Shown in pieces: positions 3,599 to 18,576 of a stretch of DNA of 64,000 bases (position 1 is the stretch's first letter; each line of letters begins with the position of its first letter). The DNA is taken from the NCBI RefSeq assembly GCF_050920415.1, contig NZ_CP169309.1; one strand, 5' to 3'. Below the pieces are notes generated by a model, which did not search any database, was not told the origin of the DNA, and worked only from the letters and a program-made list of their open reading frames with translations. The DNA comes from Escherichia coli. GTDB lineage: Bacteria > Pseudomonadota > Gammaproteobacteria > Enterobacterales > Enterobacteriaceae. Both the position numbers and the translations under genes were made by a program.

Positions 3599-5592
3599 GA
3601 TAACTTCCTGTTAATTACGCAATCCGGGTTAGCCGTCAGACTTCCGGTATTACCGTTGATTTCGAAACCCTGAACCTGGCGCATCTGTGAGAAATGATTT
3701 GCCAACGACCAGGCATCAACGCCCATCGCATACATGCGAGCCAGCGAATAATCGTTATTCACCGCACTGAGCGCCTGCTGCATTAATGGCAGATTACCGC
3801 CCGCCAGCATCGGGATTTCGCTATATTGCAAACCTTCCATTTCCAGACGGAAATCCGGACCCGCGGTGCCTTGTGCGCTTCGGGAGCTTGCGTACAGCGT
3901 TGCACCGCTCTGGCTACCGTTACGCATGGCGATCATCGGTTTGATAAAAGCGATTTCACCCGGCGTTGCCACAATGTACACCGCATCGACACGACCGCCA
4001 TTATTGGTGAACTGGTCATCGGTTGGCGTGGTTTGCAGCGTTGGATTGTTGGTCGTCATGCCGGAGTCGGTTGTTTCTCTGGGAGTAATCGGGCTACCGG
4101 TTAAAGCGATACCAGAACCACCGTTAACTCCCGCGCGTAATTCGCTGGTGGAACCAAATTTTTGTTGCAGAACGGTGCCGCCGCCCAGCTTCTGCCACTC
4201 TTGCGCAAACGCATTGGCTACGCGATCGCCCAGCGAACTGCGAGGGATCAGCACCAGTGGCGCTTGTTTACCCTGGTCACGAATATGACGCGCTGCATCG
4301 CGCGCTTCGTCTTCCGGTGAAAGCGCGAAGTAACAAATATTGACGCGGTTTTCGATATTTTCTGGCTGGTTCAGTGCCAGCACGTTCAGCGGGGTGTTGC
4401 TTTTCAGTAACTCTTCAACGTTATTTTTCAGCAACGGACCGACCACAATACTCGCGCCATCCTGCTGAACCTGGTTGAGGATCTGGCTAAGCGGTTGTGA
4501 TGAGGTATCATAAATTTTCAGCTCTGCGGATGGATTCGCGGGGGCGCTTACCGCCGCAGTGTTTGCCGCCGGGGCGCTTACAGGCACTGGTTGAGCCGCG
4601 GTTTCTTCGCCTGTCAGATCGCTAACCGAGGCTTGTGCCGGGCTGGCAACGCCGTCAACAGTTTGCTGCTGGGGTTGTTCTGCAACGTCTGCGATTGGTG
4701 CGGCAGTTGCCTGTGCCGCCACTGGCTGAGTGCCGATATTTTTCGCCGCTTCAAAGCCTTGCTGAATAGTGCGGCCAAATACCGCTGCCTGGCCATTCAG
4801 TGGCAACAGCAGGGCTATTTTGTTGGTTGACGCTGGTTTAAATGCTTTTACGTTTACCAACTGCGTAGGCAGCATTTTCGCGCCCGGGTTGTTCGGATAA
4901 CGTTTCTGCCAGTCGGCGATCCCAGCTTTCATCATGTCGGGATCGTTACGGTTATCAAACCAGACGCGCTGCAGATCAAGCCAGCCTTGCAGAATATTTT
5001 CGTCGGCGTTGATCACCAGCGTATTCGCCTGGTCCTGAGTCATGGAGGAGAGTGCCTGCCATGTAGCATCAATATTCTGTTGCTTTTCTTTCGCGCCGAG
5101 CAGGGGTTCCTGAGCAATTAAGGCGCGCAGTAAATCAATGGAAGGACGCCCCTGACTGGCATCGATTTTTGCCTGCCAGTAACGCGCCTGCTGGTTTTGA
5201 TCTAAATCGGCAGGTGTGATTTTCGCCAGCAGGGTTTGTGCGCCAGCAAAATCTTTCTGCGCCAGCTTAATTTCTACTGCCAGAAGAGTTTTCTCGCGAC
5301 GCTGGTAATCGTTCAGTTCCTGCGGCAGCTGGTTAAACAGCTCCACCGCCTGCCCGGTTTTACCTTCTTTCACCAGTGCACGAATGGCGAGTAATTGCCA
5401 GTTGATCCTGGTATCATCAGCGCTTTGCTGCATCTGCTGAAGATAAAAGGCAGAATCAGCCTGCGCCGTGCCCTGCATATAGGCAGTGGACTGATCGGGA
5501 GTATGGGTGCCACAACCGGCGAAAATCAGGGCTGCCAGAACAACAGGCAGACAACGCGCGGCTTTCAAACGAGAAAATGTTGAGGGTACCAT
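3556..5592 (-). CDS. lpoA: Penicillin-binding protein activator LpoA (outer-membrane lipoprotein)
   Basis: ORF 3556..5622 trimmed to the ATG at 5592 (MVPSTFSRL...); lipobox AGCG; TPR-like N-terminal region and periplasmic-binding-fold C-terminal region. Confidence 0.88.
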
Positions 5593-5656
5593 AATGTATC
5601 CAGTGATATTTTTTTTACGCAATGCTCAATATTAAATCGGCAATACGGACGACACA

Positions 5657-6520
5657 ATGAAACAACACCAATCGGCGGATAATTCTCAGGGCCAGCTTTA
5701 CATTGTACCGACGCCAATCGGCAATCTGGCAGATATCACCCAGCGTGCGTTGGAGGTTTTACAGGCCGTTGATCTGATTGCCGCCGAGGATACGCGTCAT
5801 ACCGGTTTACTGCTGCAACATTTTGGAATTAACGCCAGGTTGTTCGCCTTGCACGACCATAACGAACAACAGAAAGCCGAAACGTTACTGGCGAAGCTGC
5901 AGGAAGGGCAAAACATTGCGCTGGTGTCCGATGCCGGAACGCCACTGATTAACGATCCCGGCTATCATCTGGTGCGTACCTGCCGAGAAGCGGGGATTCG
6001 CGTGGTGCCACTACCGGGGCCGTGTGCTGCTATCACTGCATTAAGTGCTGCGGGTTTACCATCCGATCGTTTTTGTTATGAAGGCTTTTTACCTGCCAAA
6101 TCAAAAGGCCGCCGTGATGCGCTAAAAGCCATTGAAGCGGAGCCGCGCACGCTGATTTTTTATGAATCCACCCACCGTCTGTTAGATAGCCTGGAAGATA
6201 TCGTTGCTGTGCTGGGTGAGTCCCGTTACGTGGTGCTGGCGCGTGAGCTCACCAAAACCTGGGAAACCATTCACGGCGCGCCCGTTGGCGAGCTGCTGGC
6301 GTGGGTAAAAGAAGATGAAAACCGTCGCAAAGGCGAAATGGTGCTGATTGTTGAAGGCCATAAAGCGCAGGAAGAAGACTTACCCGCCGATGCCCTGCGC
6401 ACGCTGGCGCTGTTGCAGGCAGAACTGCCGCTGAAAAAAGCGGCGGCGCTGGCAGCAGAAATTCACGGCGTGAAGAAAAATGCGCTGTATAAGTATGCGC
6501 TGGAACAGCAGGGGGAGTGA
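5657..6520 (+). CDS. rsmI: 16S rRNA 2'-O-ribose C1402 methyltransferase RsmI
   Basis: 287-aa ORF divergent from lpoA; tetrapyrrole-methylase-like fold sequence. Confidence 0.9.
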
Positions 6521-6569
6521 TTACAGGCGTCGCAGCAAGAATAGAGCTGCAACGCCTACACCGGGCGAT

Positions 6570-7337
6570 TTAACGACGACACATCTCATCAATCATGCAT
6601 GTGAAATAGTTATGCAGCCATAAAAACGAAGCCGGGATAGCGGTAGAGACTTTAGCCGTGAGAAAACGTTCTGTCGCATCCTGCTTTCCTTCGCCAGTTA
6701 TCAGTAACAAAACTTCGCGGGCATTGAGAATATCCTTCAGGCCTAAAGTGATCCCACGAGTCACGGGACGGCCCGCGGTTTTTAACATCTCATGTTGTTG
6801 CGTTCTGGTATCAAGCTGGCTGATATGGCTTGCTGGTTGCAGACTTTCTCCCGGTTCGTTCAGCCCAAGATGGCCGTTTTTTCCCAATCCGAGAACGCAT
6901 AAATCCAGACCGCCTTTGCGCGCAATCAGGTTCGTTACCCGTTCGCACTCTGTCTCATTTATCTCTTCAGAGCGAAAGCTGATGAGCTGGTCTTCACGTA
7001 GCCCCAGCGGCTGCACGATATGCTGTTGAAGGAAAGTTTCGCAGGTGCCAGGCATTGTTAATGGCAGATCCACCCATTCGTCGAGCTTCACGAAGGTTAG
7101 TTGGCTGACATCAACCTGCTGCTGGTGGATTTTTTCTACCAGATAATGATACGTCAGTAATGGTGTGGCTCCGGTCGCCAGGCAAATCACGGCATCCGGT
7201 TTGCTACGGATCACGGCCAATAAATATTCGCTGGCACGTTCACTTAACGCCGTATAGTTTTCAACTTGTTGAAGGGTTTGCACAGGATGAAATTCCTTTA
7301 GTAAAGAGGCACCACCAGACGCAGTGCCTCGTTCCAT
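6570..7337 (-). CDS. agaI: Galactosamine-6-phosphate deaminase/isomerase AgaI (NagB family)
   Basis: 255-aa ORF with NagB/glucosamine-6-P deaminase-like sequence; last gene of the aga cluster; exact start not verified. Confidence 0.85.
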   Translation of the reverse strand: MERGTASGGASLLKEFHPVQTLQQVENYTALSERASEYLLAVIRSKPDAVICLATGATPLLTYHYLVEKIHQQQVDVSQLTFVKLDEWVDLPLTMPGTCETFLQQHIVQPLGLREDQLISFRSEEINETECERVTNLIARKGGLDLCVLGLGKNGHLGLNEPGESLQPASHISQLDTRTQQHEMLKTAGRPVTRGITLGLKDILNAREVLLLITGEGKQDATERFLTAKVSTAIPASFLWLHNYFTCMIDEMCRR

Positions 7338-8129
7338 TTACAAAATGCCGAATGCGGAACAAACAATAGAGAGCACAAAAGTCACGCCGATTAACAGCAC
7401 CGGATGCGCTTTTTTCACCCGCAGGAAGTAATACATCAACAGGGTGTAGGCCATCGGTAAAATGTTCGGGAAGACTTTATCGAAGAAATCCTGCTGCAGC
7501 GCGACGCTGTGGGTACTGTCGATGGCAAACGATGTCACCACGTTAATATGCACATACGAAGCGATCAGCCCGCCGATTACCGTGATCCCGAGGATGGTTG
7601 CCGAACGAGCAATCATCTGCGAGTTCTCTCGCACTTTATCGATCGCCTTCACGCCGACTGAATAACCGACGTGGGTCCAGCCGACGCGCAGGAAGAAGAT
7701 AAGCAGGTAAACGGCGAAAAATAGAATCGGCCCCAGCAGGTTTCCCTGACTGGCAAACGATGAGCAAATCCCCGCCATAATCGGCAACAAAGTAAACCAG
7801 AAAATCGCATCACCAATCCCGGCGATTGGGCCAAACAGCGCCACTTTGAGGCCTTTAATGGTGTCGCGGTTTTCTCCTTTTTCTTCCATCGAAATTAATA
7901 ACCCCATCAGGAATCCGACCAGATTCGGGTGAGTATTAATAAATTCGAGGTTATCTTTCATCGCCGCGCTTAGGCCCGGTTTGTCGTCCTTATAAATCTT
8001 TTTCAGGAGCGGCAACATCGCCCAGGTAAAACCGCCCGCCTGCATCCTTTCGTAGTTAAAGCTCGCTTGCAGGAGTGACGAACGAAAGCCCAGACGGGTG
8101 ATATCTTTTTTACTGATTTCAGATCCCAT
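7338..8129 (-). CDS. agaD: PTS galactosamine-specific EIID component
   Basis: ORF 7338..8276 trimmed to MGSEISKKD... start at 8129; mannose-family IID; start overlaps the agaC stop. Confidence 0.85.
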   Translation of the reverse strand: MGSEISKKDITRLGFRSSLLQASFNYERMQAGGFTWAMLPLLKKIYKDDKPGLSAAMKDNLEFINTHPNLVGFLMGLLISMEEKGENRDTIKGLKVALFGPIAGIGDAIFWFTLLPIMAGICSSFASQGNLLGPILFFAVYLLIFFLRVGWTHVGYSVGVKAIDKVRENSQMIARSATILGITVIGGLIASYVHINVVTSFAIDSTHSVALQQDFFDKVFPNILPMAYTLLMYYFLRVKKAHPVLLIGVTFVLSIVCSAFGIL

Positions 8130-8922
8130 TGCTGTAGTCCTCTTCTTCATTTTTACTGGCAACGGGCTGCGGTTGCGCTTGCTGCCGGGATTTCGCATTG
8201 AAAAACTCATACACCGCAAAGCCTGCGCCCAGTACGGCAACCGGCAACAGGTTGCTGACCTGGATGTAGCAAACAAACAGGAAACCGGCGATCAGGTAAG
8301 GGATATATTGCGCTTTGAACATTACGCGCAGCAGCAAGCCAAAACCAACGGCAGGCAGAATGCCGCCAGCCACTTCAAAGCCGTGGGTCAGCCAGGCGGG
8401 CATCGCTTTCACCAGCGCCTGCATCGCCCCTTGCGCCAGGTAAGTACAGAGGAAAGCAATCACCGCATACGCTGAAGCGACGATGAGCATCGTTGTCCAG
8501 TTAAGTCGGGAAAACGCTGCTGTATCCGCCTCTTTCGCACAATTATCAGCTTTGGTCATAAATAATGAGAATGCCGAATAGAAGAACAGAATGACGTACT
8601 GCATTAACAAACTAAACGGCAGACCAAGGCCAATTGCCGTTTTGGCATCGACGCCCGTAGACCATGCAATGACGGTAGTCATCAGACCCGCCATAATTGG
8701 GTTGGGCGGCTGTACACCACCTGCGGGGGTTAATCCGGCGAAAGCCAGTTCTGTTAGGCCACCGGTAATTAAGCCAGTCTGAATATCACCGAGAATAGCA
8801 CCTGTAAGGGTACAAACGATTATCGGGCGGAATAAAAATAAGGCTTCCAGCCAAAAATCAATCCCCAGAACGAAAACTAACGCCGCCAGGGATAATCCCT
8901 GAATTAGGGTTATTTCATGCAT
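8119..8922 (-). CDS. agaC: PTS galactosamine-specific EIIC component
   Basis: 267-aa hydrophobic mannose-family IIC ORF. Confidence 0.88.
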   Translation of the reverse strand: MHEITLIQGLSLAALVFVLGIDFWLEALFLFRPIIVCTLTGAILGDIQTGLITGGLTELAFAGLTPAGGVQPPNPIMAGLMTTVIAWSTGVDAKTAIGLGLPFSLLMQYVILFFYSAFSLFMTKADNCAKEADTAAFSRLNWTTMLIVASAYAVIAFLCTYLAQGAMQALVKAMPAWLTHGFEVAGGILPAVGFGLLLRVMFKAQYIPYLIAGFLFVCYIQVSNLLPVAVLGAGFAVYEFFNAKSRQQAQPQPVASKNEEEDYSNGI

Positions 8923-8960
8923 TTTTATTACCTCAAACCAGTATTAAGGCGATTTTAAAT

Positions 8961-9437
8961 TTAGTCAGGGATTTGTTCTTTTTGATCGCCGGGGACGTCC
9001 TGAATAAAAATATTCACACCGCGTTGTTTAATAAAGCGTAAGTCCGTGAGATCCTGGTCATCGACATAAACTTTACTGCTGATTTGCTTTTTACCTTCCG
9101 AGAAATGCATATTGCCGACGTTGACATCTTTCAGGTCAATGCCACCTTCTATCAATTTACGTACCGTTTGTGGCGTACGGCAAATCAGGAAGATCTTCTG
9201 ATGCGGTGCAGCTTTGCCGATGACGTTAATGGTTTTTTCGATAGTAAAGAAACGAATGCCAAAGCCGTAGGTTTCCGCGGTAATACCCATTAATTTCTGT
9301 TGAATATCATCGTTAGCGACAACATCATCCACGACCACCAGCAGATTTGCACCGATGGTAGATGTCCAGGTCACACCAACCTGACCGTGAACCAGACGGT
9401 TATCAATACGGGTTAAGAGAATATTTGGACTGCTCAT
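8961..9437 (-). CDS. agaB: PTS galactosamine-specific EIIB component
   Basis: 158-aa ORF, mannose-family IIB (RIDNRLVHGQV motif). Confidence 0.88.
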   Translation of the reverse strand: MSSPNILLTRIDNRLVHGQVGVTWTSTIGANLLVVVDDVVANDDIQQKLMGITAETYGFGIRFFTIEKTINVIGKAAPHQKIFLICRTPQTVRKLIEGGIDLKDVNVGNMHFSEGKKQISSKVYVDDQDLTDLRFIKQRGVNIFIQDVPGDQKEQIPD

Positions 9438-9603
9438 TGTGTAATCCTCACCATAAAGTTGAATAATATAATTTTTTTAAATATATTATTGTTGCGATAT
9501 TTTACTGATGTATTTATTAAGGTTTAGTTATCTCCTTTACCATTAAGGCACTCCCCGATATTAATCGGGAAGTACATTGGGATAAATCATAAAAAACTAA
9601 TGA

Positions 9604-10476
<873 letters not shown>

Positions 10477-11631
10477 TTATGCCTGCCACGGATGAATGAT
10501 TACGCCTTGCACCACGCGGTTAACGGTGCCGCTGGCTGATGGGGTATCCGGCGTATTGCCCATGTGCAGCGATTGCATCAGTGCAAATGTCTGGGCGTAC
10601 ATCAGGAAGCAAAATGCCTGCTCAACGTCGATAAAGTGACGGGACGGCGGCAGGATGATATGTGGACCGGCGGTAATAACGTCGTTGCTTTCCGCGGCGA
10701 TAGCGATTACGCGCATTGCCTGGTTGTCACGGCGGAGTTCTGCCAGCAGATCAAGATCATACTGACGCGTATAGGGGTGGCTGGAGACAAACACCACCAC
10801 CAGCGTTTCGTCATCGACCAGTGATTTAGGCCCATGACGGAATCCGGTCGGGGAATCATAAAAGGCCGCCAGTTTACCCGCCGTTAGTTCAAGCACTTTC
10901 AGCGCCGACTCGCGTGCTGCACCCTGTAATCCACCACTGCCGAGATAAACGATCCGTTTCCACGGTGCGTAACCAAACACACCTTCGCTGAAATCGCCCA
11001 GTGAGGTCAGGATCGCCTGGCAACGATCCGCTACGTCGCGGAAGGTCTGGCTATTGATTGTCTCAGGTGCGAAAACCGCGAGGCAGCTGGCCATCATAGT
11101 GGTAATGCTGCTTGTCATCGCAAAGCCGCGATCGTGCGTTTCTGCGGGCATCAGCAGGGCAAACGCGTTGTCGCTGTTGATCGCGTTTTGGTAAAGAGCG
11201 CCCGCTTCGTTGCAGGTGATCGGCAGGTGATAGCATTCCGGTACAAACTGATTCGCCAGTTCCACGGCGGCGACGCTTTCCGGGCTGTTGCCGGATCGAC
11301 CGAAGGAGATCATCAGCAGCGGATGAGCTGGATTCAGGTAGTCCATCGGATTGGTGACCAGATCGGTGGTTGGTACGGCGCTGAAGTTTTTACCGGTATG
11401 GCTGGCGAGCCACGGCGCGATGATGTCACCGATAAATGCCGAGGTTCCGGCTCCGGTCAGGATGATCCGCAGATTCTCTTTGCGCAGTAACGGTTCAAGG
11501 AAGTTATTGAGCGCGGAACGTAGCGCGTCGATGTTGGTGAGTGAACGGATCCATGCGCGAGGCTGATGGCGGATCTCTTCTTCAGTCCATGTGCCGGTGG
11601 TGGCGGCCGCTGGGGTGTAATTTTCTGGCAT
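10477..11631 (-). CDS. agaS: Putative galactosamine-6-phosphate deaminase/isomerase AgaS (tandem SIS domains)
   Basis: 384-aa ORF; synteny. Confidence 0.88.
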   Translation of the reverse strand: MPENYTPAAATTGTWTEEEIRHQPRAWIRSLTNIDALRSALNNFLEPLLRKENLRIILTGAGTSAFIGDIIAPWLASHTGKNFSAVPTTDLVTNPMDYLNPAHPLLMISFGRSGNSPESVAAVELANQFVPECYHLPITCNEAGALYQNAINSDNAFALLMPAETHDRGFAMTSSITTMMASCLAVFAPETINSQTFRDVADRCQAILTSLGDFSEGVFGYAPWKRIVYLGSGGLQGAARESALKVLELTAGKLAAFYDSPTGFRHGPKSLVDDETLVVVFVSSHPYTRQYDLDLLAELRRDNQAMRVIAIAAESNDVITAGPHIILPPSRHFIDVEQAFCFLMYAQTFALMQSLHMGNTPDTPSASGTVNRVVQGVIIHPWQA

Positions 11632-11679
11632 AACTCAATCCTTAGTCTGATGAACTTGACTTCCGGCATTGCAGGTTTC

Positions 11680-11790
11680 GCTTGCCTTTCGTTTCATTTC
11701 ACTTGGTGATTCGTTTCGTTGATTAAAATCTATAGAAAAGAAATCGAAAGTTCAATGGAGAAAAAAGAAATAAAACGAAATTTGTGATCG
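11680..11790. promoter_or_regulatory. agaS promoter region with repeated AgaR-type operator motifs
   Basis: Repeated CTTTCGTTTCATTTC, TTCGTTTCGTT, AAATCGAAAG and AAAACGAAAT motifs upstream of agaS. Confidence 0.6.
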
Positions 11791-11982
11791 TTGAAAGAAA
11801 AGACAAGGGAAGATTAAAGGATTGCGTGATGACGTCGCTATGTGTACCGATTGCTGGAAGCGGCGTACCGTTAGAGCGGATAAGACGCGCCAGCGTCGCA
11901 TTCGACACCACTGCACAGATTAAAACGAAAGAAAAAGAAAGGCCTTACGGGGGAAGTGAAGGCCCAATAAAGGAGCAAATCA

Positions 11983-13116
11983 TCAAAACGAAGCTAATTG
12001 ACCCTGAATCCAGATTTGTTGCACATGCAGTCCGCTATCCAGCGCAACGACGCTGGCGCGTTTGCCCGGTTTAAGTGATCCCAAAACACCATCAACACCC
12101 AGCATTCGCGCCGGATGCAGCGACGCCATATGGATGGCTTCCGCTGGCGTTACGCCCGTCAGCTCGACCATATTGCGAACAGCCGCATCAACAGACAGCG
12201 TACTGCCCGCCAGTCCACCGGACGCGGTACGGACAACGCCGTCGTGCATCTGCACCTCTTCACCACATAACGTATAGCGACCATCCGGCATCCCGGCTGC
12301 CTGCATCGCGTCGGTGATGAGCACGATTCTCTCTTTCGCACAGCAACAACACAGCGACATCGCCGCCGGATGTACATGATGACCATCGGCTATCAGTTCC
12401 AGCCAGGCGCGCTTGTCCGTTAATCCTGCGCCAACCATTCCCGGTTCGCGGTGATGTAAACCTGTCATCCCGTTATAGCAATGCACCAGGCCGTCGGCAC
12501 CAGCGTCAAACGCGGCGCGGGTTTGTTGCCAGGTTGCTGCGCTATGTCCCAGCATTACCCGCACGTTCTGCTGTTTAAGATGACGAATGGCTTGTAACGC
12601 GCCCGTTTTTTCCGGTGCCAGCGCCACCACGCGCAAGGTATGCCGTGAAACAGCAATCAATTGATCCAGCTCGGCAATTTCCAGCTCGCGAAACAGCTCC
12701 GGCGGATGTGCGCCTTTATTCTGCGGCGTGAAGTACGGTCCTTCGAGATAACTCCCCAGCACTTGCGCACCAGGTCCACCGCGCTGGCAGCGTAGAGCAA
12801 TACGTTCCAGCGCCGCATGAATGGTATTAAGCGGCGCGGTTACGGTAGTCGGCAACCAACTGCCGACACCTTCCCGTGCCTTGTGCATTGCCAGCTTGTC
12901 GAGCACATCCGGCGCGTCATCCATAACATCAACGCCCGCACCACCGTGTACATGGGTATCGATATAAGCGGGGCAGAGCAGTTCCGCATCGCGTTCAGCC
13001 ACGCCCACTGGAATCGGTTCGATTGCTGCAATTACACCGTCAGCAATATGCAACTGATGATCATCAAGCCAGCCCTCCTCAGTCAGCAGCCTTCTGGCGC
13101 GCAGAACGTGTGTCAT
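11983..13116 (-). CDS. agaA: N-acetylgalactosamine-6-phosphate deacetylase AgaA (NagA family), full length
   Basis: ORF 11983..13137 trimmed to the ATG at 13116, which forms an ATGA overlap with the agaF stop; amidohydrolase metal-binding motifs; intact, unlike the truncated K-12 allele. Confidence 0.85.
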   Translation of the reverse strand: MTHVLRARRLLTEEGWLDDHQLHIADGVIAAIEPIPVGVAERDAELLCPAYIDTHVHGGAGVDVMDDAPDVLDKLAMHKAREGVGSWLPTTVTAPLNTIHAALERIALRCQRGGPGAQVLGSYLEGPYFTPQNKGAHPPELFRELEIAELDQLIAVSRHTLRVVALAPEKTGALQAIRHLKQQNVRVMLGHSAATWQQTRAAFDAGADGLVHCYNGMTGLHHREPGMVGAGLTDKRAWLELIADGHHVHPAAMSLCCCCAKERIVLITDAMQAAGMPDGRYTLCGEEVQMHDGVVRTASGGLAGSTLSVDAAVRNMVELTGVTPAEAIHMASLHPARMLGVDGVLGSLKPGKRASVVALDSGLHVQQIWIQGQLASF

Positions 13117-13547
13117 ATTCCTTCCTCGACCGGACATTCTTCATGGCAGCGGCCTAACTCGTCCACCAGACTGGTCAGCCCACGGTGTCCACTCTCCAGC
13201 GCCTGTACACGGAATTCTTCACCGCTTAACCCTTCGCGCTCCAGCACCATTTCCAGTAACAGTTGCAAATTGGTGCCGGTGATCACTTCATAGCCCGGTT
13301 TTTGCATCGCCAGCGTTGAAGCCACGCGAAACGGTGTGCCGCCCAGCAAATCTGTCAGAAAAACAATGCCGTCTTCACAATCCAGTTTGGCAATGGCTTC
13401 TTCAAGCTGCGATGTAAGCAGCGCAGTGCTTGAGGTTTCCGGAAAATCAATGGCGATAAACTGCGACTGCTCGCCGAGGATTTGCTTCATTGCTTTTTCC
13501 ATGCCGCTGGCAAATCCGCCATGCCCTGTCAAAATAATACTTAACAT
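13113..13547 (-). CDS. agaF: PTS N-acetylgalactosamine EIIA component
   Basis: 144-aa ORF, mannose-family IIA. Confidence 0.85.
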   Translation of the reverse strand: MLSIILTGHGGFASGMEKAMKQILGEQSQFIAIDFPETSSTALLTSQLEEAIAKLDCEDGIVFLTDLLGGTPFRVASTLAMQKPGYEVITGTNLQLLLEMVLEREGLSGEEFRVQALESGHRGLTSLVDELGRCHEECPVEEGI

Positions 13548-13564
13548 CTAATACCTCATTGTAT

Positions 13565-14449
13565 TTAAAGGAAATGACAGAATTTACCGACGATGCCAAG
13601 AACCACGGTAACCGCAATCAGGCGCAGCGGACTCCAGCCGCGGCGTACCAGCCAGAACATGGTCAGGGTGTAGACCAGCGGTAAGAAGGCAGGCATCAGT
13701 TTGTCGATAACGTCAGCCTGCAGCTTAACCACTGCGTCGCCCGCCGTGATTTCCAGCGTGGTGCTTAAACGAACATAGGTTGCCACCAGCGCGCCGATCA
13801 CCGTCATCCCAACGATAGACGCTGCATGGCCGACTTTTTTGGTATTCGCTTTAATGAGTGGGATCGCCGCCACGCCCATGCGGTAAGCATAATGCGCCAG
13901 ACCAAAACGCAGCCCCAGGTGTACCACGTTGAACAGCACAATAAAGACGACTGCGCCAAGAATAGAGCCTTGCAATGCCAGACTGGCACCAATCCCGCCA
14001 CAAATCGGCAGTAACGTTAGCCAGAACATGGCATCGCCAATCCCGCCGAGCGGCGCACCGACGGCAATTTTGGTGCTCTGAATACTGTTAACGTCCTGCT
14101 TAGAACGCTCCATCGCGAGGATAATGCCAATAACAAACGTCACCAGAAATGGATGGGTATTGAAGAAACCCATATGTCCCTTCATGGCGCGCGCCAGGTC
14201 GCGTTTATTAGTGTGGATCTTTTTCAGAGCAGGCAGCAGACCGTACAACCAGCCGGAAGCCTGCATACGCTCGTAGTTAAAAGACGCTTGTAACAGCATG
14301 GAACGCCAGGCGACGCGGTTGATATCTTTTTTTGTTAGCTCCGCGCCAATGCTCTGATCTTCGTATACGTTTTCATTGACGCCTGTCAGTAGTGTCTCTT
14401 CATTTTCGCTGACGTTCGGCAGGGTGGTTTGATTAGATGCCATCTTCAA
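13565..14449 (-). CDS. agaE: PTS N-acetylgalactosamine EIID component
   Basis: 294-aa ORF, paralogous to agaD; exact start uncertain. Confidence 0.82.
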   Translation of the reverse strand: MKMASNQTTLPNVSENEETLLTGVNENVYEDQSIGAELTKKDINRVAWRSMLLQASFNYERMQASGWLYGLLPALKKIHTNKRDLARAMKGHMGFFNTHPFLVTFVIGIILAMERSKQDVNSIQSTKIAVGAPLGGIGDAMFWLTLLPICGGIGASLALQGSILGAVVFIVLFNVVHLGLRFGLAHYAYRMGVAAIPLIKANTKKVGHAASIVGMTVIGALVATYVRLSTTLEITAGDAVVKLQADVIDKLMPAFLPLVYTLTMFWLVRRGWSPLRLIAVTVVLGIVGKFCHFL

Positions 14450-15212
14450 ATTCCTCTTTCTGTGCCGCAGGTTGAGTCGGTTCAGGAGATTTACGCAGCA
14501 GGTCGATCAGCGCCATCGCCAGCGCGGCGGCAGCAATAGCCAGCACCGGTAACTTGAGCCAGGCGGCGGCAACGAAGCCCAGGATGAAGTAGGGGATATA
14601 GACGTTTTTCATCATGATTTTCAGCAGCACGGCAAAACCGATTGCTGGCATGATGCCGCCCGCGACGCCAAGGCCGTCGATTAACCGTTGCGGCAGGACA
14701 TCAATGATGGTTTTTGCATGCTCCGCGCCGAAGTAGATAGGCAGGAAAGCGCAGAGAAAATAGAACGTGCCGAGTGCCAGCAATGCCAGATAGTTCACGC
14801 GTTCAATGCCGCGAGTATCGGCGTTCTCCGCCATCCGGTCGCAGCGGGACATCACGCCAGACATCACCGAGAACAGGAAGGTAATCCCCATCTGTACTGC
14901 GACAGCGAAAGGTACGGCGACACCGACCGCGACATCCGGTTTCACACCAGTAGTAATGGCAAATGCCGTGCCGACGATAGTTCCGATAATCACGTTAGGC
15001 GGCTGTGCGCCCGCCAGTGGTGCCAGCCCCATCCACACCAGTTCCAGCGTACCGCCGGTTAAAATACCGGTATGCAGATCGCCAAGCACCAACCCAACTA
15101 ACGGGCCGAGGACCACCGGGCGGTGCATATGGGTCAAGCCGTTAAACATATCCAGGCCAGCGATAAAGGCGATAATGCCCAACGCAAATGCCTGCAACAG
15201 ACTGATTTCCAT
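14433..15212 (-). CDS. agaW: PTS N-acetylgalactosamine EIIC component
   Basis: 259-aa hydrophobic ORF paralogous to agaC; full length. Confidence 0.85.
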   Translation of the reverse strand: MEISLLQAFALGIIAFIAGLDMFNGLTHMHRPVVLGPLVGLVLGDLHTGILTGGTLELVWMGLAPLAGAQPPNVIIGTIVGTAFAITTGVKPDVAVGVAVPFAVAVQMGITFLFSVMSGVMSRCDRMAENADTRGIERVNYLALLALGTFYFLCAFLPIYFGAEHAKTIIDVLPQRLIDGLGVAGGIMPAIGFAVLLKIMMKNVYIPYFILGFVAAAWLKLPVLAIAAAALAMALIDLLRKSPEPTQPAAQKEEFEDGI

Positions 15213-15222
15213 AATGAATCCC

Positions 15223-15696
15223 TCAAAGTAATTTAAAGAGGTCCACAGCAGGTTCTGTCGGAACGCCCTGAACGAAGCATTCCACCCCAGCGGCTTTCAG
15301 GCCGTTAAATGCCGCGATATCGCTCGCATCCACAGAAACCGTTTTGGCAATTTGCTGCTTGCCATTGGCATAGTGCATGTTGCCAACGTTAATGCGACTC
15401 ACCGGGACCCCACCTTTAACCAGCGTCAGGAAATCGGCAGGTGTTTTACAAACCAGCAGAATTTTCTGCCGATCGGCGGCGCGGTGGATGTTGTCGATCA
15501 CTTTTTGCAGCGTCCAGAAACGTACGGCGATCCCTTCTGCCAGTACCATTTCCATCAGGTTTTGTTGTACCGGATCTTCGGCAACCTCGTCATTGGCTAC
15601 CAGCACCAGATTTGCCCCCGCGAATCCGACCCACTGAACGCCGACCTGACCGTGAATCAAGCGTTCATCAATCCGGCTTAAAACAATATTTGGCAT
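15223..15696 (-). CDS. agaV: PTS N-acetylgalactosamine EIIB component
   Basis: ORF 15223..15732 trimmed to MPNIVLSRID... ATG at 15696; paralogous to agaB. Confidence 0.85.
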   Translation of the reverse strand: MPNIVLSRIDERLIHGQVGVQWVGFAGANLVLVANDEVAEDPVQQNLMEMVLAEGIAVRFWTLQKVIDNIHRAADRQKILLVCKTPADFLTLVKGGVPVSRINVGNMHYANGKQQIAKTVSVDASDIAAFNGLKAAGVECFVQGVPTEPAVDLFKLL

Positions 15697-15718
15697 AGCG
15701 TGTTCCTCTTTGTTTTGC

Positions 15719-16999
15719 TTATTGGCCTTCACAGGCTGTGTGGTACTGCGCCAGGATGTCCTGAATATGGTTGATAATGAGTTCCCGTGGCGTTGGCTGC
15801 AGCTCGCCGGAGCGAACTTTCACGTATTGCAGCGGCAGGTACTGACTGATGAGCGGCAGCGGAATCGGTGAATCCGCCAGATTACGAACCAGATGAGCGA
15901 AAGCGTCATCAATCTGGCTGTCCGGCCAGTAATAGCGCACGCGATCCGAGTAGCTATAACCACGCGCCAGGCGACGTGCGTTGCCGTCACCGTGGTAGTG
16001 GCTTTGCCAGTATTCCGGGCGGTCGAGCATCACGTTTTCCAGTACCTGACGCAGACCGGAACAGGCTTTCGCTGGCACCAGTTCTTCTTCAATCGCTGCC
16101 AGTGAAAACAGTGCTTCACGCAGGGCGAAGGTCAGCGCTGGGCCAACTTTCAGAATGGAAAAGTGGTCAATCACCAGCTGGCGCAGCGATTGCGGCGTTT
16201 GATAATCGGTAGAGTGCGCTTCGAAAATCAGCGTTTCGTAGTTTTCGACCATCTGGCTTAAGGCGGTCGCTTTAGCTGGCTGATAATCAATAACGTTGGT
16301 GTGATCGAATTCGACGCCGGGTTGTACCACCAGAGCAATGATGCGTGGCCAGATGGCATTCAGACCTTGCTTTTCAAAGGCGTGACGATGGGCTTCCAGC
16401 GTGGCGCGGGCGGCATCCGGCGTGGTGACCGCCAGCTCGCTTAAGGTTTCATGCGCGCCGCCAGGTACCGGCACTTCGGTACCAATGACATAGACCAGAT
16501 CGGCTTCGCCAAAGTGTTCACGGCAGGTTTCTTCCGCGACTTTAGCCAGTCGGGCGGCGCGTTCAGCCACGATGTCATCGGTTAAGGGAACCGGATCGTC
16601 CTGACAGGACATGCTGCAATCAAGGTGAATTTTTTTGAATCCTGCCGCCACGTAGCTTTTAATCAAATCATCGGCATTGGCCATCGCCTGAGCTGCAGGC
16701 AGGTTTTGCCAGCGGTTTGGCCCCAGATGATCACCACCCAGAATCAACGCGTCTTGTGGGAAATTCAATGAGTCGGCGAGCTGACAAACAAAGCCGCGAA
16801 AATCGGCGGGTGTCATTCCGGTATAACCGCCGAACTGGTCCACCTGATTGGATGTCGCTTCAATCAGTAACGGTGTTTGGTTTGCACTGGCGTAGCGGAT
16901 TGCAGCTTCCAGCACCAGCGGGTGTGCGGAACAAACGGCATAAATCCCATTTGTTTTGCCCTCTTTGTGCTGCCTCACCATTTCTGTCAGATGTTTCAC
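15719..16999 (-). CDS. kbaZ: Tagatose-bisphosphate aldolase non-catalytic subunit KbaZ
   Basis: ORF 15719..17065; start placed at in-frame GTG 16997-16999 giving (M)KHLTEMVRQ...; an alternative ATG lies 7 codons downstream. Confidence 0.8.
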
Positions 17000-17065
17000 T
17001 TTCCTCTCCAGTTCAGATTGCTGCGATATTAATCTTTCGTTTTGTTTCAGTTGATACTGCGTCAT

Positions 17066-17247
17066 GGTGAGATAAAAATAAAACGAAAGATAATAGTTTT
17101 CTGATCTGATTCACAAAAGAAACATAATGAAAGTCACTGAAACGAGAGTAGCTTGCGTCAATGGGCAAGGTGGGCTTGCATTTGCTCAATAGAAAGGCGT
17201 TAATAGACAAAACGAAATGAAACGAAAGTTTTACGAAAGGACTTACT
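17066..17247. promoter_or_regulatory. Divergent kbaZ / agaR promoter region with AgaR-type operator repeats
   Basis: Motifs AAAACGAAAGA, GAAACGAGAG, AAAACGAAATGAAACGAAAGTTTTACGAAAGG. Confidence 0.6.
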
Positions 17248-18057
17248 ATGAGTAATACCGACGCTTCAGGCGAGAAGCGAGTGACAGGCACCAGCGAGCG
17301 ACGAGAACAAATCATTCAGCGCCTGCGACAGCAAGGGAGTGTGCAGGTTAACGATCTGTCGGCATTGTATGGCGTATCTACTGTGACGATCCGCAACGAT
17401 CTGGCGTTTCTGGAAAAGCAGGGGATCGCTGTGCGGGCCTATGGCGGCGCGTTGATCTGCGATAGCACGACGCCGTCAGTCGAGCCATCAGTGGAAGATA
17501 AAAGCGCGCTGAACACTGCGATGAAACGCAGCGTTGCGAAAGCTGCCGTTGAGTTGATTCAGCCAGGTCATCGGGTGATCCTCGATTCCGGGACCACCAC
17601 TTTTGAGATTGCTCGTCTGATGCGCAAGCACACTGACGTAATTGCGATGACCAATGGTATGAACGTAGCCAATGCACTGCTGGAAGCAGAAGGCGTTGAA
17701 CTTCTTATGACCGGCGGGCATCTGCGGCGTCAGTCGCAATCTTTTTACGGCGATCAGGCTGAACAATCGCTACAAAATTACCACTTTGATATGCTTTTTC
17801 TCGGCGTAGATGCGATCGATCTGGAGCGCGGCGTCAGCACGCATAATGAAGATGAAGCCCGTTTAAACCGTCGGATGTGCGAAGTTGCGGAACGGATCAT
17901 TGTGGTCACCGATTCCAGTAAGTTCAACCGTTCCAGTTTACATAAGATCATTGATACTCAACGTATCGACATGATCATTGTTGATGAAGGCATTCCTGCG
18001 GATAGTCTGGAAGGACTGCGAAAGGCTGGGGTTGAAGTGATTCTGGTCGGGGAGTGA
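17248..18057 (+). CDS. agaR: DeoR-family transcriptional repressor AgaR
   Basis: 269-aa ORF with N-terminal HTH and DeoR C-terminal sugar-phosphate-binding domain. Confidence 0.9.
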
Positions 18058-18111
18058 GAAAGGGGGCCCGCTGGTCAACACCAATGTGTTCGGCGGGCAT
18101 TGTGAACACCA

Positions 18112-18576
18112 TCAATGGTTTTCTTCTGTCTCTTGGGTGAGGCTTTCCCAGCCGGCAGGAGGATGTCCTCTTTTTAACATTTTACTGAATACGGTATAGG
18201 CATCTGTTTTTTTACCGTAGGTGCGCAGCGTGTTTTCATCGTTCATCCATCCCAGAATGATGACTTTCTCTTTTTCACTGTAACGAAAGAAGAGACGATA
18301 GCGACCAGCACCAAATTTTACCCGTGACCAGTCTTTATTTTTCCCAGAGCCTAACGACTTGCCATGACGGAATGCCGGTGATGATGGATTGACCGTGATA
18401 TGCTCCTCAATCACTTTATGGACCACCGCCAATAACTTTGTGGCAGCTTTTCTCTGATAATTTTCAGGATCTTTTCCCTTTAATGCCTCGACTTCGGCAA
18501 CTAAAGCATCGTAGGTTTCCTGAAAACAGGGATGAGCATATAGCGCCCAACCATTAACCCTTTGTGGAAAATCCAT
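18112..18576 (-). CDS. yhaV: Toxin YhaV (ribosome-dependent mRNA interferase)
   Basis: 154-aa ORF immediately downstream of and 1-bp-overlapping prlF; sequence recognised as YhaV. Confidence 0.88.
   Translation of the reverse strand: MDFPQRVNGWALYAHPCFQETYDALVAEVEALKGKDPENYQRKAATKLLAVVHKVIEEHITVNPSSPAFRHGKSLGSGKNKDWSRVKFGAGRYRLFFRYSEKEKVIILGWMNDENTLRTYGKKTDAYTVFSKMLKRGHPPAGWESLTQETEENH

Follow-up and report, generated by a model that had tools for sequence, protein, structure and literature searches.

Organization of the aga Locus

The 64,000-nucleotide stretch of Escherichia coli DNA analyzed here (the window) is 100% identical over 14.3 kb to E. coli MFDS1022581 and contains a complete minus-strand aga/gam cluster comprising agaI, agaD, agaC, agaB, kbaY, agaS, agaA, agaF, agaE, agaW, agaV, and kbaZ, from the rest of which agaR diverges on the plus strand (Table 1). 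The agaR gene is intact and its product is 100% identical to the AgaR protein of K-12. The spacer between agaA and agaS extends from 11632 to 11982 (351 bp), and here the gene coordinates agree with those of an earlier, sequence-only reading of this DNA. The spacer between kbaZ and agaR, which that reading had placed at 17066-17247 by using the longest open reading frame, is actually 248 bp long (17000-17247). The kbaZ start is the GTG at 16999 (426 aa, RefSeq), tblastn alignments begin at residue 1 in about 60 genomes, and the spacer measures ∼245-252 bp in nearly all of these; the site at 17031-17054 is therefore intergenic. The longest kbaZ frame (448 aa, ATG at 17065) is over-extended and would place an AgaR operator, together with a portion of the promoter region, inside the coding sequence. 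A search of positions 11000-18500 against Rfam gave no match and no sign of a riboswitch or small RNA.

In K-12, AgaR is reported to bind at three promoters, those of agaS, kbaZ (agaZ), and agaR (Ray and Larson 2004, Mol Microbiol 51:813, as cited in PMC3668189 and PMC4694137). In the published operon structure agaS is driven by the Ps promoter, and deletion of agaR renders agaA and agaS constitutive (PMC3668189); the inducer is described as unresolved (PMC4694137).

Table 1. Features of the aga locus by position in the window, with AgaR operators as predicted from motif matches.
Feature	Position	Strand	Remarks
agaS	10477-11631	-	RefSeq annotation of the identical genome; leads operon agaS-kbaY-agaBCDI, predicted to be controlled by the O1/O2 promoter
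Extra TTTCG copy in agaS leader	11672-11680	+	Lineage-specific, not conserved; K-12 reads GTGAAAGCGAC
AgaR operator O2	11683-11706	+	TGCCTTTCGTTTCATTTCACTTGG; 0 mismatches; PWM 32.1 bits; same in K-12
Extra TTCGTTTCGTT pentamers between -10 and O2	11710-11722	+	Lineage-specific; K-12, O157, and H8 read CGAAAGACAT
Predicted agaS core promoter	11727-11755	-	Read from sequence; conservation across genera 0.89-0.94
AgaR operator O1	11761-11784	-	CAAATTTCGTTTTATTTCTTTTTT; 1 mismatch; PWM 29.6 bits; same in K-12
Putative CRP site (agaS)	11783-11798	+	TGTGATCGTTGAAAGA; one good half-site; center ∼-70.5 from predicted start
Decayed REP (palindromic unit)	11871-11906	-	BIME remnant, indel-variable among E. 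coli lineages
Likely intrinsic terminator after agaA	11921-11965	-	Hairpin 11965-11940, then T-rich tail TTTCTTTTTCTTTCGTTTT
agaA	11983-13116	-	Ends at 11983
AgaR operator, kbaZ upstream region or leader	17031-17054	+	AATCTTTCGTTTTGTTTCAGTTGA; 3 mismatches; PWM 27.8 bits; same in K-12
Weaker operator-like site, kbaZ promoter region	17066-17095	-	Core TTATCTTTCGTTTTATTTTTA; PWM 14.7 bits, above shuffle maximum of 10.9
CRP site (kbaZ-agaR)	17100-17115	+	TCTGATCTGATTCACA; 1 mismatch to TGTGAN6TCACA; conserved across genera
AgaR operator	17113-17136	-	TGACTTTCATTATGTTTCTTTTGT; 1 mismatch; PWM 25.9 bits; same in K-12; conserved
AgaR operator	17208-17231	-	AAACTTTCGTTTCATTTCGTTTTG; 0 mismatches; PWM 39.8 bits, top score of the window; same in K-12
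agaR	17248-18057	+	DeoR-family repressor, 269 aa; Pfam HTH_DeoR and DeoRC

Repeats in the Two Spacers and Their Expectation by Chance

At least four copies of a CGAAA/TTTCG repeat, in both orientations, had been claimed for the agaS spacer and at least four more for the kbaZ-agaR region, and both counts hold. There are six in the agaS spacer, three per strand (CGAAA starting at 11745, 11776, and 11926; TTTCG starting at 11676, 11687, and 11714), and five at 17000-17247 (CGAAA starting at 17084, 17213, 17223, and 17234; TTTCG starting at 17035). The bare pentamer is weakly enriched, since its six copies in 351 bp compare with an average of 1.1 for the window and other 351-bp stretches reach five, a suggestive enrichment that is too weak to carry a claim of operators. 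Such mild enrichment would suit an explanation in which the repeats simply come with promoter DNA that is rich in AT and T-tracts (UP-element-like or curved) and no protein reads their sequence specifically. The longer words speak against this. The octamer TTTCGTTT occurs eight times per 64 kb, with seven of the eight copies inside the two aga spacers. The 24-bp sequence WRMMTTTCRTTTYRTTTYNYTTKK, which we take to be the AgaR consensus of Ray and Larson from 2004, has five matches in the 64-kb window at three or fewer mismatches, where 0.11 are expected and no shuffled sequence gave more than one. All five fall inside 11632-11982 or 17000-17247, and their mismatches number 0, 0, 1, 1, and 3.

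A position weight matrix (PWM) built exclusively from loci outside Escherichia, which was seeded with the 24-bp consensus and hence does not represent a de novo motif, scores the five sites at 25.9-39.8 bits, while scores beyond the two aga regions stay at or below 3.9 bits throughout the window and the best score over 20 shuffles is 10.9 bits. The positional conservation of the sites described below is independent of that consensus. In an AgaR motif scan, the point on which the sequence-only reading had staked its assignment, the repeats thus match both the consensus and the PWM. AgaR operators are reportedly present at the agaS, kbaZ, and agaR promoters.

The agaS Promoter Region

Two of the five consensus sites, O1 and O2, lie upstream of agaS and flank its predicted core promoter. 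This promoter has a -35 element TTGAAC (11755-11750) and a -10 element TAGATT (11732-11727) separated by a 17-bp spacer, TTTCGATTTCTTTTCTA, which is TTTC-repeat-like. With a start site predicted near 11720, O1 would read in the agaS sense from ∼-64 to -41 and abut a CRP half-site, while O2 would read antisense to agaS at ∼+15 to +38. A scan with the sigma-70 consensus called no promoter in the agaS spacer, since the core promoter matches at 8 of 12 positions, and the start site and the positions given relative to it are therefore estimates. The spacer between the two promoter elements (11733-11749) is conserved nearly as well as the operators yet does not fit the operator PWM; it reads TTTCGATTTC in the window, which is the cross-genus consensus, TTTCAGTTTC in K-12, H8, and BEN5202, and TTTCGGTTTC in O157.

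The agaS promoter is reportedly CRP-dependent. The putative CRP site next to O1 has three mismatches and is not significant alone, and at this threshold (three or fewer mismatches) the CRP pattern is uninformative, with 224 matches against 225 expected. The GATCACA half-site of the putative site is conserved across genera.

The kbaZ-agaR Divergent Region

The conserved blocks of the divergent spacer are four operator-like sites, the CRP site at 17100-17115, which is the only one to stand out among the matches to the CRP pattern, and a promoter-like block before agaR. Three of the four operator-like sites match the 24-bp consensus and the fourth is weaker (Table 1). The operator at 17031-17054, nearest to kbaZ, is conserved in 20 taxa, and within the weaker site (17066-17095) the block TAAAAATAAAACGAAAGATAA is conserved across genera. 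The operator at 17113-17136 overlaps the CRP site by three bases. The operator at 17208-17231, the predicted site of agaR autoregulation, has the conserved agaR promoter block on one side and the ribosome-binding site of agaR on the other. A functional AgaR site from PkbaZ has been given as CTTTCGTTTCATTTTCGTTT (PMC8667592, Table S3), and except for one displaced T this is the core of 17208-17231. The CGAAA copy that starts at 17234 coincides in part with the ribosome-binding site of agaR and lacks conservation.

Comparison with K-12 and Other E. coli

The agaS spacer was found in 5,312 of 5,426 complete E. coli genomes, and only 15 of them carry it at 99% identity or more. By BLAST it is 86.7% identical to that of K-12, and by alignment the divergence is concentrated at ∼11815-11875, with the promoter and operator half well conserved; the kbaZ-agaR spacer is ∼98% identical. 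Each of the five consensus operators is present letter for letter in the spacers of K-12. Compared with the AgaR operators of K-12, those in the window have the same bases, positions, and orientations and are served by the same repressor protein, and the two strains differ only in non-operator DNA, namely by two substitutions in the promoter spacer, a few changes in the agaS leader, and the state of the BIME indel described below. The agaW-agaA deletion of K-12 reaches neither control region. The sequence-only reading had proposed a comparison with K-12 on account of the intact GalNAc branch in the window, and the number, sequence, and spacing of the operators prove equal with or without that branch.

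Three strains with an intact cluster, O157:H7, H8, and BEN5202, were also compared. The cluster in the window (6700-18400) is mostly ∼91-99%, typically 95-97%, identical to that of each of them, while positions 5500-5800 are 99.3% identical to H8 and BEN5202, and the lower identity of the cluster relative to this flank suggests that the window carries a divergent or mosaic aga allele. Introgression of the spacer allele from a cryptic Escherichia clade was considered and rejected, as the spacer is 87-92% identical to those clades, which is no closer than H8 (92%).

The surroundings of the cluster also vary among strains. In the window agaI adjoins rsmI and lpoA (5657-7337) and the yraHIJK fimbrial operon is absent, as it is in H8, BEN5202, and L1PEag1, while in K-12 and O157:H7 this operon lies between agaI and rsmI/lpoA. 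On the other side, agaR is followed by the prlF-yhaV toxin-antitoxin pair, both in the window and in K-12; this pair is absent from BEN5202, where agaR is annotated as 825 bp rather than 810 bp and is directly followed by garD (12114-13348 of its locus).

Conservation across Enterobacterales

A search with AgaS yielded 71 aga loci (1.17 Mb) from other Enterobacterales, with genera that include Escherichia, Citrobacter, Enterobacter, Klebsiella, Raoultella, Kluyvera, Salmonella (diarizonae), Lelliottia, Yokenella, Pluralibacter, Mixta, Yersinia, Buttiauxella, Kosakonia, and Cedecea, among others. These loci contain 162 matches to the consensus at two or fewer mismatches, 69 of them within 250 bp upstream of agaS, and all but two of the 162 fall either in that 250-bp interval or in the bins that correspond to the kbaZ-agaR spacer. 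Downstream of the agaS start there are none in the 71 loci. Measured from the ATG, the agaS sites lie at -153 (sense) and at ∼-75 to -81 (antisense) in the majority of loci, over a range of genera that extends from Escherichia to Yersinia, Buttiauxella, and Cedecea. The inverted orientation of O1 and O2 is kept, and 49 of 51 loci place the two cores 79-81 bp apart.

When conservation is taken as the mean frequency of the top base in an 18-taxon alignment, the operator cores, at 0.96 (O1) and 0.97 (O2), exceed the flanking DNA (0.50-0.67), with values of 0.50 for the distal spacer and 0.66 for both the stretch between the -10 element and O2 and the agaS leader. The elements of the predicted promoter lie at 0.90 (-35 TTGAAC), 0.89 (17-bp spacer), 0.94 (-10 TAGATT), and 0.87 (GATCACA CRP half-site). 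That sequence, orientation, and spacing are fixed across genera while the flanks diverge contradicts an origin as a by-product of promoter composition, and together with the 24-mer count it makes such an origin scarcely credible.

E. albertii departs from this pattern. In the ∼230 bp upstream of its agaS gene, O2 carries a 5-bp deletion, the -35 region is altered (CATTTAGGTTTC), and the distal spacer shows no relation to its E. coli counterpart. The agaS promoter of E. albertii may be in decay or have been rewired.

TTTCG and CGAAA words are also found in the operators of amino-sugar regulators. On general grounds, therefore, the motif might be read by a regulator other than AgaR, such as NagC/Mlc or another DeoR paralog. 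Several observations make this very improbable. About 60 genomes carry the motif together with agaR, within the loci it is confined to the aga promoters, and its direct pentamer repeats are unlike the palindromes typical of NagC/Mlc. In addition, these promoters have been assigned to AgaR (PMC3668189), and the sequence has been used as an AgaR site (PMC8667592).

Copies Outside the Operators and the Likely agaA Terminator

Of the six pentamers found in the agaS spacer, no more than two or three lie within conserved elements; one is in the T-tract of a likely terminator and two are lineage-specific. The likely terminator consists of a hairpin (-10.2 kcal/mol, z = -1.48) that begins 18 nt past the agaA stop codon and is followed by a T-rich tail, and similar hairpins with T-tracts are found at the same gene end in Enterobacter soli and Lelliottia. 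A terminator scan of the agaS spacer did not call this hairpin, probably because its outer loop exceeds the limit of the scan, and gave terminator-like matches on the wrong strand only. The copy of TTTCGTTT at 11923-11930 lies within the tail and is most simply explained as part of it.

The other two sets of extra copies lie nearer to agaS. The pentamers at 11710-11722 fall in a stretch that is poorly conserved across genera (0.66), do not figure among the highest PWM scores, and are unlikely to form an operator. The copy at 11672-11680 has no PWM score and lies in the agaS leader, which is variable across genera. Templated mutation was considered as the origin of the extra pentamers and rejected, since E. 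whittamii carries part of the variant, and they are therefore ordinary polymorphism. The rare leader allele with extra CGAAA pentamers may alter the strength of repression in this lineage.

Every CGAAA/TTTCG copy, including those at 11923-11930, 11710-11722, and 11672-11680, could instead be a contact for AgaR, in which case the window would have an expanded array with tighter or altered repression relative to K-12. From the -10 element to the ribosome-binding site, the window does exceed K-12 by two perfect pentamers, the site at 11918-11947 reaches 10.6 bits, and six other loci have weak consensus matches at ∼-300 to -312. The score of 10.6 bits, however, is at the level of shuffled sequence, and the pentamer copy within that site stands in the T-tract after a hairpin and reads TTTCTTTTT in strain H8, while the copies nearer to agaS lack a PWM score, are absent from K-12, O157, and H8, and occupy the least conserved stretches. 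It is thus improbable that all copies are bound by AgaR, and the assignment of operators is kept to the sites that match the consensus and the PWM.

The REP/BIME Remnant

The DNA between the likely agaA terminator and the agaS promoter contains an extragenic element of REP type. The sequence-only reading had proposed a REP-like palindrome at about 11878-11906, and this holds, the element being best read as a decayed copy of a REP, although the palindrome GCGGATAAGACGCGCCAGCGTCGCATTCG lies at 11876-11904, 2 bp away from the position proposed. Its tail has 3 mismatches in 16 and is the weakest of 12 matches to the pattern in the window, where 1.36 are expected; the 11 others, all better, are elsewhere in the window. 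The outer stem is broken, and the sequence folds no better than shuffles and forms no stable hairpin. In K-12 the orthologous element reads GTCTTATCCGACCTAC, a full REP match by inspection, and is followed by a second, inverted REP, which makes it a BIME; the features returned for NC_000913.3 include no REP in the agaA-agaS spacer. Like other REP/BIME elements of E. coli, the copy in the window is palindromic and extragenic, lies between two operons directly after a terminator, and has a tail resembling GYCTTATCMGRCCTAC, and unlike the intact elements it is decayed. Both the agaA terminator and the decayed REP/BIME are unrelated to AgaR.

The element differs among E. coli lineages by indels, and this BIME indel polymorphism accounts for the low identity of the agaS spacer to that of K-12. 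The longest form, in E. coli E69, comprises REP1, a linker, REP2, and one additional segment. From this form 28 bp are missing in the window, in H8, and in the cryptic clades, and in the window they correspond to the linker and half of REP2, while K-12, O157, and BEN5202 lack a different segment of ∼30 bp, so that the window and K-12 types are nearly equal in length (351 and 350 bp). In E. coli L1PEag1 an IS1397-family element (6694-8285 of the L1PEag1 locus), flanked at each end by ATTA, occupies the loop of the orthologous REP and parts the agaA terminator from the agaS promoter by ∼1.4 kb. IS1397 is specific for REP sequences (PMC1525189).

Discussion

The consensus repeats in the two spacers are very likely operators of the neighboring repressor AgaR that control the agaS, kbaZ, and agaR promoters. 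This reading, which agrees with the sequence-only reading, is supported by consensus matches far above chance, identity of the sites to those of K-12, an intact AgaR, conserved positions across genera, and the sequence used as an AgaR site in PMC8667592.

Each operator would span ∼24 bp, its core made up of three direct repeats of 5 bp each (CTTTCG-TTTYR-TTTC). In front of agaS, the inverted O1 and O2 would flank the core promoter, with the conserved TTTC-rich spacer between its -35 and -10 elements. AgaR bound at O1 would be positioned to block the CRP-assisted recruitment of RNA polymerase and AgaR bound at O2 to block promoter escape or elongation, and one oligomer may bridge the two. Growth on GalNAc or GalN would release AgaR. 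In the divergent region, the three strong sites and the weaker one would control kbaZ-agaVWEFA and autoregulate agaR. The blocking mechanism, any looping, the start site, and the positions relative to it are predictions from the DNA sequence.

Given inverted operators 79-81 bp apart with a conserved spacer between them, one AgaR oligomer might bridge or wrap the entire agaS core promoter, with the TTTC-repeat spacer as a third, off-register contact. We consider this arrangement tentative, and a search of the literature found no demonstration of looping or of oligomer bridging by AgaR.

The aga system shares features with the multi-operator control exerted by other sugar-phosphate repressors of the DeoR/GlpR family, DeoR at deo and GlpR at the glp operons. 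AgaR likewise carries HTH_DeoR at its N terminus and the DeoRC sensor domain at its C terminus, and its promoters likewise have several operators each, on both sides of the start site, together with activation by CRP. The operators of DeoR and GlpR are palindromic, whereas those of the aga promoters consist of three 5-bp direct repeats.

The AgaR operators of the window are already described biology and a textbook regulon architecture, with every consensus operator as in K-12. For a strain with an intact GalNAc/GalN cluster, this means that the AgaR control circuitry is that of K-12, and the value of the analysis lies mainly in correct annotation, in that real operators are separated from a terminator tail, lineage-specific noise, and a REP remnant. 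Conservation across genera also maps the control regions of agaS and kbaZ-agaR cleanly, and this map could guide promoter engineering or the annotation of the regulon in Enterobacterales.
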